This document shows, one piece after another, positions 43,207 through 48,213 of a DNA stretch of 64,000 nucleotides. A model generated the notes under the pieces. It was not told the origin of the DNA and searched no databases. It saw only the letters and a list, made by a program, of their open reading frames with translations. A program made the position numbers and the translations under genes. The stretch is from contig JAZOQY010000032.1 of assembly GCA_045656285.1 (NCBI GenBank), positions 6,758 through 70,757 of the forward strand, read 5' to 3'. Origin of the DNA: Kiritimatiellia bacterium. Its GTDB lineage: Bacteria > Verrucomicrobiota > Kiritimatiellia > RFP12 > UBA1067. Positions within the stretch are counted from its first letter, which is position 1; every line of letters begins with the position of its first letter.

Positions 43207-44136
43207 ATGAAGCAATATGTTAAGGTGATGTTGGGGCGTAAAAGCTGTATGGCGGACAAGTGCCATGCGGATGGATTTATCGGCGCGGGATTCCTCTCAA
43301 AAGTCGATTTTTCGAAAAATCTTTATGATGAGTGGCGAGAATTCAACAAGAAGTATATCCCGGTCTATTTGAAGGAATGCCCGGGGAAGAGTAGGGTCGC
43401 GGCGGGTTTAAGCTGCGGTTATCTTTGGACGGTTTGCAAAGGGCTTCGGACTGGTGATGTTGTCCTTTCGCCGACAGGGAACAAGGGCGAACTGTACGTT
43501 GGCGAGGTGATCGGTGACTATTATTACGTGAAGGGCAACGACTTTCCGCACCGTCGTAAGGTTAAATGGTACAACGTCATCCTTCATCGCGAAGACATGA
43601 GTGAAGATCTCCAGCATTCCTCTGGAGCAATTGGAACCTGTGCAGATCTTTCAAAATATGCACAGGAGATCGAGAAGCTAATCGGCACGAACGCGCCTGT
43701 TCGAGTCATGACGAATGATCCAGACATCGAGGACCCGAGTGTCTTTGCGATGGAGAAGTATCTCGAAGAGTTCCTTGTTTCGAATTGGAAGAATACCGAC
43801 CTTGGCAAGAAATACGATATCTTCAGCGACGAGGGCGAGACGATAGGAGAGCAGTATCCGACCGATACGGGGCCCATTGACATACTGGCCATCAGCAAAG
43901 ACCGCAAGACAGTACTTGTTATTGAACTTAAGCGAGGTCAGGCCTCTGATCGCGTCGTCGGTCAGATCCAACGCTACATGGGTTACGTGAAGGATGAAGT
44001 CCTCGAAAAAGGACAGAAGTTGAAGGGTTTAATCATCGGTCTTAAACCTGATCAAGGTCTCAAGCGGGCGCTTTCTATGTGTCCTGATATCGAATTCCGC
44101 CGTTACAAAGTCGACTTCAAGTTGCTAAAGGATTGA
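43207..44136 (+). CDS. NucS/DUF91-like PD-(D/E)XK nuclease with an unassigned N-terminal domain
   Basis: RBS aaaggaga. The C-terminal half (LEEFLVSNWKNTDLG...GPIDILAISKDRKTVLVIELKRGQASDRVVGQIQRYMGYV) matches the NucS-type nuclease core. Confidence 0.65.
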   Translation: MKQYVKVMLGRKSCMADKCHADGFIGAGFLSKVDFSKNLYDEWREFNKKYIPVYLKECPGKSRVAAGLSCGYLWTVCKGLRTGDVVLSPTGNKGELYVGEVIGDYYYVKGNDFPHRRKVKWYNVILHREDMSEDLQHSSGAIGTCADLSKYAQEIEKLIGTNAPVRVMTNDPDIEDPSVFAMEKYLEEFLVSNWKNTDLGKKYDIFSDEGETIGEQYPTDTGPIDILAISKDRKTVLVIELKRGQASDRVVGQIQRYMGYVKDEVLEKGQKLKGLIIGLKPDQGLKRALSMCPDIEFRRYKVDFKLLKD

Positions 44137-44149
44137 GGAGGTTGAATGG

Positions 44150-44218
44150 ATGCTTAACTTCATCATTAACTACGACATCAAATACCGCATGGGCGACGAA
44201 CTGAACGCGGAGGAGTAA
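44150..44218 (+). CDS. Possible 22-aa ORF (MLNFIINYDIKYRMGDELNAEE)
   Basis: It is preceded by gaggagg. There is no other support. Confidence 0.2.
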   Translation: MLNFIINYDIKYRMGDELNAEE

Positions 44219-44243
44219 TAAATTTGAAAGGATTACATACGGC

Positions 44244-44459
44244 ATGGGAGAAGAATTAGTTTTTGGCAAGGGGTTGCCAGGTCGTGTGGCCCTCGCCAAC
44301 TCGCGGGATCGGCTTGTTGCTCCGATGAATCCTGCTGGAGGGGCTATGGCAATTTGCACTCGTGATCGGCTGATTTCGCCGTGTAATCCGTCCACACGTA
44401 CACAGGATCGATTGCCGACACCAACACGTCCACAGGGTTCGGGAACGCAACGGCATTAA
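44244..44459 (+). CDS. Small protein (71 aa) with three DRLxxPx(N/R)P repeats
   Basis: Repeats lie at 44307-44333, 44364-44390 and 44406-44432. At the conserved residues they differ from each other at synonymous codon positions. The RBS is weak. Confidence 0.45.
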   Translation: MGEELVFGKGLPGRVALANSRDRLVAPMNPAGGAMAICTRDRLISPCNPSTRTQDRLPTPTRPQGSGTQRH

Positions 44460-44475
44460 TTTGAGGAGGGTAATT

Positions 44476-44580
44476 ATGAATGATAGAGGAGATGTTGTAA
44501 AATCGGTGGGCGGCGTCGTGCAAGGTACTGCAGACCGATTGTCGGCACCTGCAAACCCCGTGACGCGTCCTGTGAAATAG
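44476..44580 (+). CDS. Small ORF (34 aa) carrying a fourth DRLxxPxNP motif, in frame with the downstream SLATT-like ORF across a single TAG
   Basis: AGGAGG lies 6 nt before ATG 44476. The motif is at 44533-44559. TAG at 44578-44580 is followed directly by the same-frame ORF starting at 44581. Confidence 0.45.
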   Translation: MNDRGDVVKSVGGVVQGTADRLSAPANPVTRPVK

Positions 44581-44622
44581 GTGGACGTTTTGGGCGAATC
44601 GCTGACAGATCGCTTCTGGATA

Positions 44623-45135
44623 ATGAAGCATGGGCTGCAACGCTCGTATTATTATTACGAGTCGCGCCGTTGTTTTTGGATGTTGTTTTTGATTGTCACA
44701 AAAGCAGCAGAGTTCTTTGTTGGCTATCCAGCTGTCGCGTCATTAATAGATGGGAAACTGAGCGTTTGGGTTTGGGTTCGGGCCATCGTTGCTACCGGAT
44801 CATCTGTCTTGACTTTGTGCCAGGCGACTTCGCGCAGAGACATCCTTTTGCATCAGATGCGAGAGATGGGCGCGTGCTTGGGGATGATGCCTTATCGCTC
44901 GGAAGACGAGACAGAGGAGTTGTACCTAAAAATCAAGATGCGTCGCGAAAAGGCAGAACGTAAGGACGATGTAATTTTCGAAGTCGTGGATGCGATGTGC
45001 TATAACAAAGCATGCAAGACACTTGGTGCTGCAGAACGTTGGCGTATCACCCCTTGGCAGAAGTTTTTCGGATGGTGGTTGCCGATACCATATACGATGA
45101 ACGCGAAAATGGAACGGGTGGAAAACGGTGTGTAG
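44623..45135 (+). CDS. Two-TM membrane protein, SLATT-like putative effector
   Basis: Two hydrophobic helices (CFWMLFLIVTKAAEFFVGYPAVASLI and VWVWVRAIVATGSSVLTLC) are followed by a ~100-aa soluble tail. It lies directly upstream of the RT gene. An alternative start is GTG 44581. Confidence 0.6.
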   Translation: MKHGLQRSYYYYESRRCFWMLFLIVTKAAEFFVGYPAVASLIDGKLSVWVWVRAIVATGSSVLTLCQATSRRDILLHQMREMGACLGMMPYRSEDETEELYLKIKMRREKAERKDDVIFEVVDAMCYNKACKTLGAAERWRITPWQKFFGWWLPIPYTMNAKMERVENGV

Positions 45136-45162: not shown

Positions 45163-48100
45163 ATGGCGAACAGTAGTGATAGTATTTTTACATTAAAGAA
45201 TGCAACGACGGCTTATAAAAAAGCGAAAGTCGATGCATGGAAATTGCATACGATTAATGCTACCGATTTTATGCAGTTTGAGGTCGGCTTTAAGGAGAAC
45301 ATTGTTGATTTCTTGGCGGATATTTCTTGGGTTGATTATCAAAAGATTTTGTCTGATGATTGGCTGGGAACATGGTCATATCGGATAAAGAAAGTCCATC
45401 CATTGGAGGAGGAGGTCGCCGGTGAAATATTTTCAGCTCCAGTAAAACAATTAAAAGGGTGCAGTGTCAAGAGTGTTGATTTCAGGGTGTTTGCAGATCC
45501 GTCGGTTAAATTTCATTTGCTGAGTGCATTTTGGATTGCTATGGTTGCGCCAAAATACAATGCGAAACTGCGGAGTTGCGTTTATGGTAATTGTCTTCGA
45601 CATGGGCAGAATCCTCGTGCCGCAGGATCGTTTGTTGGATATATTGGTAAATTGCAGGAGTGGAAGAAACGGGCAATTGGCACAACGAAGGAATTGTTAA
45701 ATCAGAAAAAAGAGGCAATCGTTGTCACGGCGGATGCAACGGCATTTTACCATTCGTTGAAGCCAGACTTTCTATTGAATGAAACCTATTTAAGAAGAGT
45801 CGGTATAAATTTGACGGATGAAGAACGGGGGCTGACAAGGTTGTTGATATCTGCTATAAATTACTGGGCATCACAAACACCGCTAAAAAGTGGGCTCCCA
45901 GTAGGATTGCCTGTGTCGGCCGTGATTGCAAATCTTGCGCTAGTTGAATTTGACTCAATTGTGTGTGACAGGGTGAAACCTGCTTATTATGGTCGATATG
46001 TTGATGATTTGTTGTTTGTATTTGAAAGGGGCGAAGGAATAAATAATAGGACGGAAGTGTGGCAGCATATTCAACGAGCGTCGAGGAATTTCAGATTAGA
46101 GTTTGTCGGCGGGGATAAGCCTGTGTTGGATTTTGTCCCACAATATGAGGCCGATATTACGAACTCCCGTATTTCATTCAATGGTGAAAAATGCAGGGTG
46201 ATGTTTTTAGATTCAAAATCAGGTGTGGGTTTTATCCGCAGATTGGAAAATCAGATTCGAGAAGTTTCCAGTGAGTTTCGCCTGCTGCCTGAACATATTG
46301 GGGACGCTAAGAGTGTTGAACACCGATTACTGAAACTCGTAGATGCTGACGGAGAGATAGTGGATTCATTTCGTAAAATCGAGATGATGACATTCAGGAA
46401 GGCTGATTTCACGGGATTTGTTCAAGAGATGGAGTTTTTCCAGCGAACATTGATTCCGGCGATGTGGCAAGCACAAAGGCAAGCTTTTTATCGGTTTGTG
46501 TGTGATTACATATTGTCGCTAAAACACTATGACGAATATGAGGCAAATTTATTCCAGATAATCACGCTTGCGGTGAGTTGTGGGGATTTTGTTGAGTTGA
46601 GCAATATTATAGATTCATTGAATGCCCTGGCGAATGAGATTTTGGGCGTTAAATCGTTGTGTGTTGCCCATCCCAAGCAAAGGACTGGGCAGATGCATGA
46701 AATGCAATTCTTGATTACGAAGCAGAATGTTGCGGATCAATGGTTGAGTCGATTGTATGTTCGAATCGCTGACTGCGTTCAGAGAAGTTTTAATTGTCGT
46801 GGTGACGCATCGTATCGTGCGCGATACGATGCGTTTCGTGAGAAATTTCTGGTAAATGCAGGAATCCGATTACTTCCTTCGGCACGCGTTTCAACCTATA
46901 ATCAGCATGCGCTAATTCATGATGTAAGTGAGTTTAGGTATGTTGATCATTTATATCGCAAGGAAATACGTTCCAATAGAATTATCTCTGATAATGGCGG
47001 CATGAGATTGTTATCTGTTGGGTTGAAAATGGACGATGAGGTTAAGTCACTGTTTGATGATTTGTTTTTGGCTGGAGTAGATGCAGTCTATAAAAATGTT
47101 TTGAAAGATGTTTATAAATCTGATGAGATTCCTTATGGGATGTTGTTTCCAACGCGACCTCTCGTTCAGCATGATTTATTCTGGTTGGAAGATGCGAGCT
47201 TGTGGGTAGATAATTCTGATGTAATAATGCAGGCATTCCGTGGGTATGCTGCCAAATTGACAAACAGGGAGCGTGTAAATGATGTGGATATTTTATCTGT
47301 GCCGACGCGGCGAAATCATAAAGTGAGAATTGCGTTGGTAAATATGAAAACTAAAAATGAGGATGTCTACGCAAATTTTATCGAGATTTCACCAGAGTTG
47401 CGATTTCATAGGTTTTGCAAGATTGTTGAGTTAATTAATCGAGTGTTACGGAATGAAAAGAACTTGGATTACATTGTGCTTCATGAGTTGGCGTTGCCTG
47501 CCGAATGGTTTGTGCCGATTGCTGAAAGGTGTGCAATTAGTGGTGTATCTATAATCTCGGGCATTGATTATCTGGTTACTGAAAAGGATAAATATTGCAT
47601 AAATCCTGTGTGGATGTCGCTTGTCGGTGAGAAGGATGGTGGATTTCGTCAGACAGTATATATTTGTGAGAATAAGAAAGATTTCTCGTATGAAGAAGAA
47701 AAAGAAATATCTGACAGAGGCTATCAAAATGATCCTTACAAGACGAAAGAAGATCATGCCATAATTAGGCATGGAGATTTTTGTTTTTCAACGCTGATTT
47801 GTAGCGAACTAACGGATATAGAAAATCGGACGCGTCTACGAGGACTGATTGACGCATTGTTTGTGGTGGAGTGGAATAAGGATGTTAATTCGTTTGCGCC
47901 GATTGTAGAAGCGACCGCGTTGGATCTGAGCGCTTATGTGATTCAATGTAATAATAACGAGTATGGTGATAATAGAATTCGTGTGCCGGCAAAAGAAAAG
48001 CACTTGCGTGATTTGATTCGGTTGAGGGGAGGAGACGCTCCTTATTATGTGTGTGAATCACTTGATGTCAATGCATTGCGCGCACATCAAGAAGAATGGT

Positions 48101-48213
48101 TTGCGAATCGTGATGGGGCCCGTACGACACGAGAGGACTGGGCGTTCAAACCATTACCCAGAGGGTATAAGTTATTTCGATTTCGTTTCCCCGATTCTGA
48201 ATGTGCGGAATAG
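45163..48213 (+). CDS. Defence-type reverse transcriptase (UG/Abi class) with a helical middle region and a C-terminal nitrilase (C-N hydrolase) domain
   Basis: RT motifs VTADATAFYHSL, GLPVGLPVSAVIANLAL and YGRYVDDLLFV (YVDD at 45997-46008). The nitrilase triad candidates are E775 in IVLHELALP, K838/K839 in ICENKKDF and C880 in STLICSEL. Confidence 0.8.
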   Translation: MANSSDSIFTLKNATTAYKKAKVDAWKLHTINATDFMQFEVGFKENIVDFLADISWVDYQKILSDDWLGTWSYRIKKVHPLEEEVAGEIFSAPVKQLKGCSVKSVDFRVFADPSVKFHLLSAFWIAMVAPKYNAKLRSCVYGNCLRHGQNPRAAGSFVGYIGKLQEWKKRAIGTTKELLNQKKEAIVVTADATAFYHSLKPDFLLNETYLRRVGINLTDEERGLTRLLISAINYWASQTPLKSGLPVGLPVSAVIANLALVEFDSIVCDRVKPAYYGRYVDDLLFVFERGEGINNRTEVWQHIQRASRNFRLEFVGGDKPVLDFVPQYEADITNSRISFNGEKCRVMFLDSKSGVGFIRRLENQIREVSSEFRLLPEHIGDAKSVEHRLLKLVDADGEIVDSFRKIEMMTFRKADFTGFVQEMEFFQRTLIPAMWQAQRQAFYRFVCDYILSLKHYDEYEANLFQIITLAVSCGDFVELSNIIDSLNALANEILGVKSLCVAHPKQRTGQMHEMQFLITKQNVADQWLSRLYVRIADCVQRSFNCRGDASYRARYDAFREKFLVNAGIRLLPSARVSTYNQHALIHDVSEFRYVDHLYRKEIRSNRIISDNGGMRLLSVGLKMDDEVKSLFDDLFLAGVDAVYKNVLKDVYKSDEIPYGMLFPTRPLVQHDLFWLEDASLWVDNSDVIMQAFRGYAAKLTNRERVNDVDILSVPTRRNHKVRIALVNMKTKNEDVYANFIEISPELRFHRFCKIVELINRVLRNEKNLDYIVLHELALPAEWFVPIAERCAISGVSIISGIDYLVTEKDKYCINPVWMSLVGEKDGGFRQTVYICENKKDFSYEEEKEISDRGYQNDPYKTKEDHAIIRHGDFCFSTLICSELTDIENRTRLRGLIDALFVVEWNKDVNSFAPIVEATALDLSAYVIQCNNNEYGDNRIRVPAKEKHLRDLIRLRGGDAPYYVCESLDVNALRAHQEEWFANRDGARTTREDWAFKPLPRGYKLFRFRFPDSECAE

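Follow-up and report, generated by a model that had tools for sequence, protein, structure and literature searches.

Paired micro-proteins with a repeated DRLxxPxxP motif accompany a PHROG 11791 membrane protein in bacterial defence islands

Results

Two small genes carry four copies of one motif

The DNA considered here is a stretch of 64,000 nucleotides (nt) from a Kiritimatiellia bacterium (contig JAZOQY010000032.1, positions 6,758–70,757), which we call the window; coordinates without a locus prefix refer to it. Upstream of a reverse transcriptase (RT) gene in this window lie two small open reading frames (ORFs), ORF-A and ORF-B, that repeat a DRLxxPxxP motif, followed by the gene for a small protein with two predicted transmembrane (2TM) helices. 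A sequence-only reading of the window had drawn attention to the motif copies and associated them with the RT. We describe here a motif-bearing micro-protein partner of a 2TM, SLATT-like effector module, previously unrecognised. The features of the locus on which the argument depends are as follows.

44244–44459, plus strand: ORF-A, 71 amino acids, three DRLxxPx[N/R]P motifs (from homologues, substitution ratios and an AlphaFold2 model)
44307–44333, plus strand: motif unit 1, DRLVAPMNP, in ORF-A; family consensus ALAN[ST]RDRL[VM]xPMNP
44364–44390, plus strand: motif unit 2, DRLISPCNP, in ORF-A; segment confined to subfamily 1
44406–44432, plus strand: motif unit 3, DRLPTPTRP, in ORF-A; family consensus RTQDRLPxPxRP
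44463–44469, plus strand: Shine-Dalgarno (SD) sequence of ORF-B, GAGGAGG; duplex with the anti-SD −12.7 kcal/mol
44476–44580, plus strand: ORF-B, 34 amino acids, one motif (GTADRLSAPANP) and a C-terminal lysine; 5′ of the 2TM gene in every locus holding that DNA
44533–44559, plus strand: motif unit 4, DRLSAPANP, in ORF-B
44590–45135, plus strand: SLATT-like 2TM protein, 181 amino acids (from hydropathy, an AlphaFold2 model and phrog_11791)

The four units translate exactly where they had been placed, three in the frame of the 71-residue ORF and one in the 34-residue ORF, and they are the only matches to DRLxxPxxP in a six-frame translation of the window, for which about 0.19 matches would be expected by chance from the window's own residue frequencies. 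Unit 3 has arginine instead of asparagine at position 8, giving DRLxxPx[N/R]P as the strict consensus, and unit 2 is missing from the ORF-A of subfamilies 2 and 3. Over 65 motif units the consensus is [N/R/C]-[T/S]-[R/Q]-D-R-L-x-x-P-x-[N/R]-P, in which the aspartate and arginine are invariant and the leucine and both prolines nearly invariant; the family context of the ORF-B motif is GTADRLPxPxNP. Consecutive prolines occur in none of the window's four motifs. The synonymous variation that the sequence-only reading had seen among the copies holds, since identical residues are encoded by different codons in between 2/6 and 7/7 cases per unit pair. Likeness at the DNA level is found between units 1 and 2 only (72% over 29 nt), and the motif units are not recent DNA duplicates.

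ORF-A has an SD sequence, AAAGGA, about 10 nt 5′ of its start, and the duplex energy listed above bears out the good ribosome-binding site attributed to ORF-B. Homologues of ORF-A form 31 protein clusters of 64–73 residues in public metagenomes. Its AlphaFold2 model is devoid of secondary structure (predicted local distance difference test (pLDDT) score 52, predicted template modelling score 0.13), and the protein is probably intrinsically disordered. The products of both ORFs are hydrophilic and basic. Neither peptide matches anything in Pfam, PADLOC, NCBIfam or PHROGs, which agrees with the earlier remark that no described family has this repeat. Literature searches likewise found no description of the motif peptides, and nothing relevant on SLATT proteins with small ORFs, proline-rich anti-phage small proteins, elongation factor P (EF-P) in phage defence or BcepMu gp19.

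One further feature of ORF-B is the lysine that precedes its stop codon (44575–44577 in the window). It is found in all ORF-Bs of the three gut-metagenome subfamilies and in the peptides of L032 and L033, conserved whatever the remainder of the ORF-B tail; the phage and plasmid peptides described below have no terminal lysine.

The small ORFs are conserved as proteins

About 40 homologous loci (referred to by L numbers) were fetched, and ratios of non-synonymous to synonymous substitution (dN/dS) were obtained from codon-aware alignments of homologous loci. These ratios are 0.11–0.38 for ORF-A and 0.06–0.40 for ORF-B, similar to the 0.10–0.18 of the adjoining 2TM gene. Substitutions fall mostly at third codon positions (for example 11, 7 and 37 at codon positions 1, 2 and 3 between the window and L005), the indels, of 3, 15 and 18 nt, all preserve the frame (ORF-B shows −18 and +15 nt), and the motif arginine is encoded by CGN in subfamily 1 and by AGR in subfamilies 2 and 3. 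Selection on the peptide, proposed earlier from the codon usage of the four copies, is upheld by these measures: ORF-A and ORF-B are real genes under purifying selection at the peptide level.

The same region was examined for signs of a structured RNA. Scanning it with Rfam gave nothing at E ≤ 1, the minimum free energy of the folded window region was no better than that of shuffled sequences (z = +0.79), and the RNAalifold covariation term of +0.8 is unsupportive of a conserved structure. The short hairpins that had been noticed in the motif units are present in the window copy, but they differ or vanish in homologues.

A membrane protein of the PHROG 11791 family

The likely start of the 2TM gene is the TTG at 44590 (MGESLTDRFW...), 9 nt after the ORF-B stop codon, because the N-terminal sequence M-x-x-SLTDRFW is conserved as protein in the homologues. 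Hydropathy places two hydrophobic helices at about residues 28–53 and 57–79, followed by a conserved soluble C-terminal region. In the AlphaFold2 model, which is of moderate confidence (pLDDT 65), two long helices form a hairpin and further helices make up the C-terminal part. The protein matches phrog_11791, a family of unknown function, with an E value of 3.6e-8 (residues 11–163 against profile positions 12–165 of 173). A profile search of 1.8 billion representative proteins gave 62 relatives; all 55 of the distant relatives that were scanned match phrog_11791, with a best E value of 9e-62. Among these 55 there are weak matches to SLATT or 2TM models: ten to the PADLOC CBASS Effector-2TM model (best E value 6e-5), two to RTasSLATT, one to SLATT_5 and one to SLATT_6.

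Searching GTDB genomes and IMG/VR with the 2TM alignment found no relative, and a broader alignment gave one distant genome locus. The window protein and P0083 had no tblastn match in phages or plasmids.

The N-terminal SLTDRFW (residues 4–10, 44599–44619) contains T-D-R-F, which resembles the [T/S]-x-D-R-L that begins the motif. The likeness could be chance, or could reflect mimicry of, or competition for, one binding site.

A three-gene cassette with probably coupled translation

The conserved order is ORF-A (64–74 amino acids, 2–3 motifs), an SD spacer, ORF-B (34–48 amino acids, one motif), 9 or 12 nt, and the 2TM gene (about 180 amino acids). It is kept in all loci with enough DNA (L001–L014, L016–L031 and L036–L044), and the cassette occurs in about 30 metagenomic lineages. 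Translation signals differ within it. Nearly all ORF-A and ORF-B starts have SD duplex energies of −5 to −12.7 kcal/mol, the exception being ORF-B in L006 (−4.0), while 2TM starts in most loci have little or no complementarity (−0.1 to −3.8 kcal/mol) and the 2TM start codon is GTG or TTG in nearly all lineages. Given this non-ATG start, the usual lack of an SD sequence and the position 9–12 nt after the ORF-B stop, translation of the 2TM gene probably depends on termination-reinitiation from ORF-B. The whole is a compact operon of fixed order, with strong SD sequences on the small ORFs and a weak or absent one on the 2TM gene, a layout like that of toxin-antitoxin (TA) operons.

ORF-B shares its frame with the 2TM gene in all metagenomic lineages examined, with gaps of 9, 12, 15 or 42 nt (44578–44592 in the window; L004–L044, L032 and L033), whereas in the phage and plasmid versions the small ORF overlaps the 2TM gene by 20 nt in a different frame. 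The shared frame may go back to an ancestral protein whose N-terminal tail was cut from it by a stop codon. Readthrough, which would join ORF-B to the 2TM protein, was considered as a general mechanism and rejected, because each of the three stop codons is found, two in-frame stops occur in both L011 and L033, and the phage and plasmid overlaps are in another frame. A 13-nt inverted repeat in the window (44421–44433 with 44581–44593; duplex −23.6 kcal/mol against −19.6 ± 2.2 for shuffles) was considered as a structure masking the 2TM start. It was likewise rejected, and is taken as chance because 11 other loci tested were no better than shuffled controls.

Some loci have peculiarities of their own. 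In L025 (991–1145) a 1-nt deletion near the end of ORF-B removes the stop codon, and ORF-B continues in another frame across the 2TM start; the ORF-A sequence of this locus is found again in L028. L044 (637–4642) is a mosaic in which ORF-A and ORF-B of subfamily 2 precede a 2TM gene of subfamily 1 and an RT-nitrilase 81% identical to that of the window, with a recombination breakpoint near the 2TM start. In L006, a Logan contig of 1179 nt, the first and last 26 nt are identical and lie in the 3′ end of a gene resembling those of restriction-modification (RM) systems (...KYIEKTIIDMDAS), which is either an assembly artefact or a sign that similar genes flank the cassette on both sides.

Relatives in phages and plasmids

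Distant relatives of the 2TM protein (25–35% identity) also have a small proline-rich ORF that ends just 5′ of, or overlaps, the 2TM start.

L032, Logan contig: upstream proline-rich ORF, ...SRNFLPPPSPRKNPPQPEGKPTNGGK
L033, metagenome-assembled genome of Lentisphaeraceae: upstream proline-rich ORF, ...EVDRDAPPPPPSDK
L045:1128–1316, Burkholderia phage BcepMu (NC_005882.1 10494–10682): upstream proline-rich ORF, ...NTLPPPPPLPTRDN..., unannotated; equivalent to gp48 in phiE255
L046:2308–2508, Klebsiella plasmid (OW969859.1 172987–173187, complement): upstream proline-rich ORF with an exact DRLQRPSGP, unannotated
L047:1143–1301, Pseudomonas phage TC7 (MG707188.1 23231–23389, complement): upstream proline-rich ORF, MMMPDRPRQPPRP...PVPPPPRRDP, partly under a mis-started gene call
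L049:333–1262, Allorhizobium ampelinum pAtS4b: proline-rich tail (...YQDFPPPTRSVPVRPAEAKPQGAPPVKPPKNKG) of a longer ORF that is missing from the PLSDB gene table

The annotated start of TC7_041 is probably 84 nt too far upstream, reading through the small ORF. The pAtS4b ORF stops 10 nt before the 2TM homologue; read by eye, its N-terminal sequence is like that of ribosomal protein S2 (RpsB), and here the small ORF may have become fused to a paralogue, or a fragment, of rpsB. Of the five free-standing distant peptides, three contain a DRxxxPxxP core (P about 1.6e-5 from composition-preserving shuffles), and the peptide of BcepMu shares 48% identity with that of the Klebsiella plasmid over 29 amino acids. 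The presence of this core beside distant 2TM relatives argues that the DRLxxPxNP repeat of the window is a local, multiplied form of an ancient motif that accompanies this membrane-protein family.

Neighbouring genes vary

The genes adjoining the cassette in the window, and those that take the place of the RT elsewhere, are the following.

43207–44136, plus strand: PDC-S02-type PD-(D/E)XK protein (DUF8426 and NucS_C; PADLOC PDC-S02, E value 2e-142)
44150–44218, plus strand: 22-amino-acid ORF (MLNFIINYDIKYRMGDELNAEE) without a DRL motif, within the conserved 5′ leader of the cassette
45163–48213, plus strand: UG5-large RT-nitrilase, 1016 amino acids (PADLOC RT_UG5-nitrilase, E value 3.7e-213, residues 6–1005)
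Downstream in the window, L001, L002 and L044: UG5-large RT-nitrilase
Downstream in L004: HATPase_c_3 protein (GHKL ATPase)
Downstream in L015 and L025: AAA_21 ATPase and bSEFIR
Downstream in L011, L013 and L016–L020: a conserved pair of 187 and 289 amino acids
Downstream in L036–L041: Abi_C protein
Downstream in L023, L024 and L027: PDC-S02 nuclease

The RT-nitrilase, in which YVDD at 279–282 (RT) and C880/E882 (nitrilase part) can be read from the sequence, is 31% identical to that of DRT11 (a defence-associated RT), the experimentally characterised UG5-large system of S. meliloti, and has no relative among viral contigs. In most cassette lineages the RT is absent and a different gene follows the cassette, and the upstream genes are equally variable (Type ISP and Type IIG restriction enzymes, PDC-S02 and others). 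The small ORFs thus belong with the 2TM gene and not with the RT, because their linkage to the former is invariable while the downstream gene changes. The association with an RT system made by the sequence-only reading does not stand, the RT being present in four loci only. That reading had also proposed looking for such repeat ORFs at homologous RT-nitrilase loci; the DRT11 locus on S. meliloti pSymA and one E. coli plasmid UG5 locus have neither the motif ORFs nor a related membrane protein.

The window's island, at about 36.7–48.3 kb, is of low GC content and lies between housekeeping genes; it contains YhcG/DUF1016, a Type IIG RM gene with an additional S subunit, PDC-S02, the cassette and the RT. 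PDC-S02 lies 5′ of the cassette in the window, L001, L002 and L008, and 3′ of it in L023 (1371–2300), L024 and L027. It is a separate candidate defence gene, whose recurrence hints at a looser association or at shared island traffic. In subfamily 2, the 2TM gene is followed by the overlapping, conserved genes for the 187- and 289-amino-acid proteins (L011:1658–2221, L013:881–2310, L016:8916–10345), the second of which weakly matches PADLOC PDC-M24B; cassette and pair may form a five-gene operon.

The 5′ leader with the 22-amino-acid ORF is conserved in L001, L004, L008 and L009. There is a 5-nt indel at the start of this ORF in L008 and L004, and L004 has no in-frame start codon. Its interior resembles the start region of ORF-A (44177–44200 and 44232–44255, 79% over 24 nt), and the junction after it resembles the ORF-A/ORF-B junction (44218–44227 and 44455–44464). 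It is probably a relic and not a gene, left either by an incomplete duplication or by an upstream gene whose 3′ end has survived here.

Discussion

ORF-A, ORF-B and the PHROG 11791 2TM gene form a self-contained, horizontally mobile cassette in defence islands. We tentatively favour, with a probability of roughly 45%, a role in which the small proteins regulate a membrane-permeabilising 2TM effector as its labile, multivalent partners, either antitoxin or sensor, with the motifs acting in trans. The motifs would be short linear motifs that bind a partner, presented in one to three copies per peptide on two peptides. The most likely partner would be the conserved cytoplasmic C-terminal part of an oligomerising 2TM protein, which would thereby be held closed; the several motif copies fit an oligomeric target. 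The logic would be that of an antitoxin encoded upstream, over-produced and labile. Infection might remove the peptides by host shut-off, by proteolysis or through a phage protein that captures the motif, and the freed 2TM protein would then permeabilise the membrane, leading to abortive infection or exclusion. The RT-nitrilase would either act in defence on its own or belong to a set of interchangeable upstream modules with the cassette as effector.

Several observations weigh against the proposal of trans-acting regulators. That the peptides bind the 2TM protein is a guess. For the window protein itself there is no match in Pfam, PADLOC or NCBIfam, Foldseek comparison of its model with the PDB gave only non-specific helical matches, all with E > 1, and the SLATT label comes from weak matches of distant relatives only. 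The description 'SLATT-like' given by the sequence-only reading is therefore retained in part: it is plausible in view of the two-helix fold and the relatives' matches, while the window protein itself matches no SLATT model, and 'SLATT-like 2TM effector' is a fair working label for a putative membership. At several loci the short gaps or overlaps to the downstream gene are as compatible with an effector module in shared use as with an autonomous system. The runs of three to five prolines in many ORF-B relatives can also be explained by a role of translation in cis. In Mu-like phages, finally, the peptide/2TM pair adjoins lysis genes, and from this context a role in lysis timing or exclusion is possible.

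The proposal can be widened, at the cost of becoming more doubtful. In its wider form, which we consider possible without leaning towards it, the DR(L)xxPxxP micro-proteins would be ancient, unrecognised, disordered regulators of the PHROG 11791 family, and the gene pair, or in the gut lineage the triple, a new system of abortive infection or exclusion, autonomous but also able to serve as an effector placed before varied defence enzymes, including the UG5 RT. The widespread PHROG 11791 family, which temperate phages, plasmids and bacterial defence islands share, would then have multivalent small-protein regulators that act as antitoxin, infection sensor or both.

Among the alternatives, an unlikely one that retains some force is that the ORFs are cis-acting leader peptides, whose proline-containing motif slows or arrests the ribosome (in an EF-P-dependent manner or by specific arrest) and so gates synthesis of the coupled 2TM protein. 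Such an arrangement might sense translation stress in infection, and the released peptides would have no function. Precedents exist in the proline-rich mgtP/mgtL leaders and the SecM and MifM arrest peptides. The 2TM start lies 9–42 nt past the upstream ORF stop or overlaps it, mostly without an SD sequence, conservation is centred on the motif, and three to five consecutive prolines occur in many ORF-B relatives (DRLPPPQNP, FLPPPSP, DAPPPPPS, TLPPPPPLP, PVPPPPRR). The window's four motifs, however, have no consecutive prolines and yet are conserved like the rest, and polyproline pausing does not call for conservation of D, R, L and N. Moreover, the ORF-A with its two or three copies precedes ORF-B, which has its own strong SD sequence, and not the 2TM gene; there is no conserved mRNA structure around the 2TM start for a stalled ribosome to open, and the distance from motif to stop codon ranges from 3 to 16 codons. 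The polyproline idea is thus weakened for the window locus, while a version at the level of the family keeps the proline runs of the relatives.

We hold it equally improbable that the cassette serves the UG5 RT-nitrilase specifically, as its effector and regulator module, replacing the canonical transmembrane (TM) partner of UG5-large systems, with the peptides linking RT-nitrilase activity to the membrane protein, for example as nitrilase substrates or adaptors. In the window the 2TM stop codon is 27 nt before the RT start on the same strand, the pairing is repeated in L001, L002 and L044, and UG5-large systems have been described as having a TM partner on which defence can depend (PMC9226505). 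Against this, most cassette lineages have no RT, the DRT11 of S. meliloti defends by the RT-nitrilase alone without a TM gene (PMC13436386), the E. coli UG5 locus lacks both the motif ORFs and a related TM protein, and the 2TM protein matches no PADLOC DRT-associated model.

Far less probable is that ORF-A and ORF-B encode precursor peptides to be secreted or modified (a two-peptide bacteriocin or a ribosomally synthesised and post-translationally modified peptide) with the 2TM protein as immunity protein. Two small peptide genes before a small membrane protein do recall class IIb bacteriocin operons, and many ORF-B copies have a GG pair before the motif. However, L005 and L006 have lost this pair, the peptides are hydrophilic rather than amphipathic or hydrophobic, and in the contexts read no transporter, protease or modifying enzyme is conserved beside the cassette. 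The neighbours are instead RM enzymes, nucleases, ATPases, TIR/SEFIR, Abi_C and RT, and the setting is always a defence island or prophage. The structured non-coding RNA (ncRNA) that the sequence-only reading had kept open, with the ORFs incidental to an RT template or scaffold as in DRT2, DRT3 and DRT9, scarcely deserves credence: the region does precede the RT gene in the same orientation, and the window copy allows short hairpins, but we set this explanation aside because of the strong codon-position signature and in-frame indels, the absence of an Rfam match, of folding stability and of covariation, the hairpins altered or lost in homologues, and, in addition, the retention of the region at loci without any RT and the lack of a known ncRNA for class 3 UG RTs (PMC13436386). 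Such confidence as is left over belongs to roles beyond those listed, for example lysis timing in the phage versions.

A micro-protein family with a clear repeated motif is now defined, and it is tied to a membrane-effector family that extends from Burkholderia and Pseudomonas phages to the defence islands of gut bacteria. Annotation commonly overlooks such small proteins: in BcepMu and the Klebsiella plasmid the ORF has no annotation, and in TC7 a gene with a misplaced start runs over it. If the peptides do gate the 2TM protein, the cassette would be a simple micropeptide-controlled suicide or exclusion module, and SLATT-like effectors would be able to travel with their own regulators. An attractive but wrong link is also corrected, in that the motif ORFs do not serve the UG5 RT as template or cofactor, which matters for the dissection of class 3 UG/DRT systems.

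Comparison with known systems

SLATT/CBASS-type 2TM effectors (Burroughs et al., 2015; PADLOC 'Effector 2TM'; Pfam SLATT_1–6) are the first point of reference. The likeness lies in a small protein that has an amphipathic helix at its N-terminus, then a pair of TM helices and a cytoplasmic tail made of helices, and is found in defence islands beside varied enzymatic modules. The difference is that the window protein matches no SLATT or 2TM model and that, in the contexts read, no nucleotide-signalling partner (SMODS, SLOG or CD-NTase) is conserved beside the cassette. We know of no description of SLATT proteins in which a small protein bearing a repeated linear motif is a conserved partner. For UG/Abi RTs, SLATT proteins have been described as accessory or replacement effectors of high mobility (PMC9226505).

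With the UG5-large RT-nitrilase and TM system (Rst_RT-nitrilase-Tm) the window shares a UG5-large RT-nitrilase and an adjoining membrane protein gene. The described TM partner sits downstream of the RT (PMC9226505), whereas the 2TM gene of the window is upstream and is unrelated to the gene after the RT in the one E. coli UG5 locus compared; the cassette, moreover, mostly occurs without any RT. The DRT11 of S. meliloti needs no TM protein and has no detectable ncRNA (PMC13436386).

The resemblance to type II TA and abortive-infection modules, those whose antitoxins are labile and partly disordered, is one of plan: a putative inhibitor encoded upstream of a potentially toxic protein, with stronger translation signals and coupling, in a compact mobile module of islands and prophages. 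The peptides are likely to be protease-sensitive because they are predicted to be disordered. The cassette differs in having two putative inhibitor genes with a repeated nine-residue motif in place of a folded, DNA-binding antitoxin, and in that the putative toxin is an integral membrane protein. Toxins of this last kind are usually controlled by antisense RNA, in type I TA systems.

Leader ORFs such as mgtP/mgtL and the arrest peptides SecM and MifM act through conserved mRNA structure and carry their motif once, near the ORF end. The likeness here is a short upstream ORF with a conserved, proline-containing sequence before a membrane-related gene. The cassette, by contrast, lacks a conserved structure and spreads several motif copies over two ORFs, with no PP pair in the copy of the window.

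A further comparison is with members of PHROG 11791 itself, BcepMu gp19, phiE255 gp49 and TC7_041. The phage versions differ in having one peptide instead of two, in lying beside repressor or lysis genes, and in their annotation, the upstream ORF being overlooked in BcepMu and merged into the 2TM gene in TC7. The match to the family is full-length, and in the phages too a small proline-rich ORF stands just upstream of the membrane protein gene.

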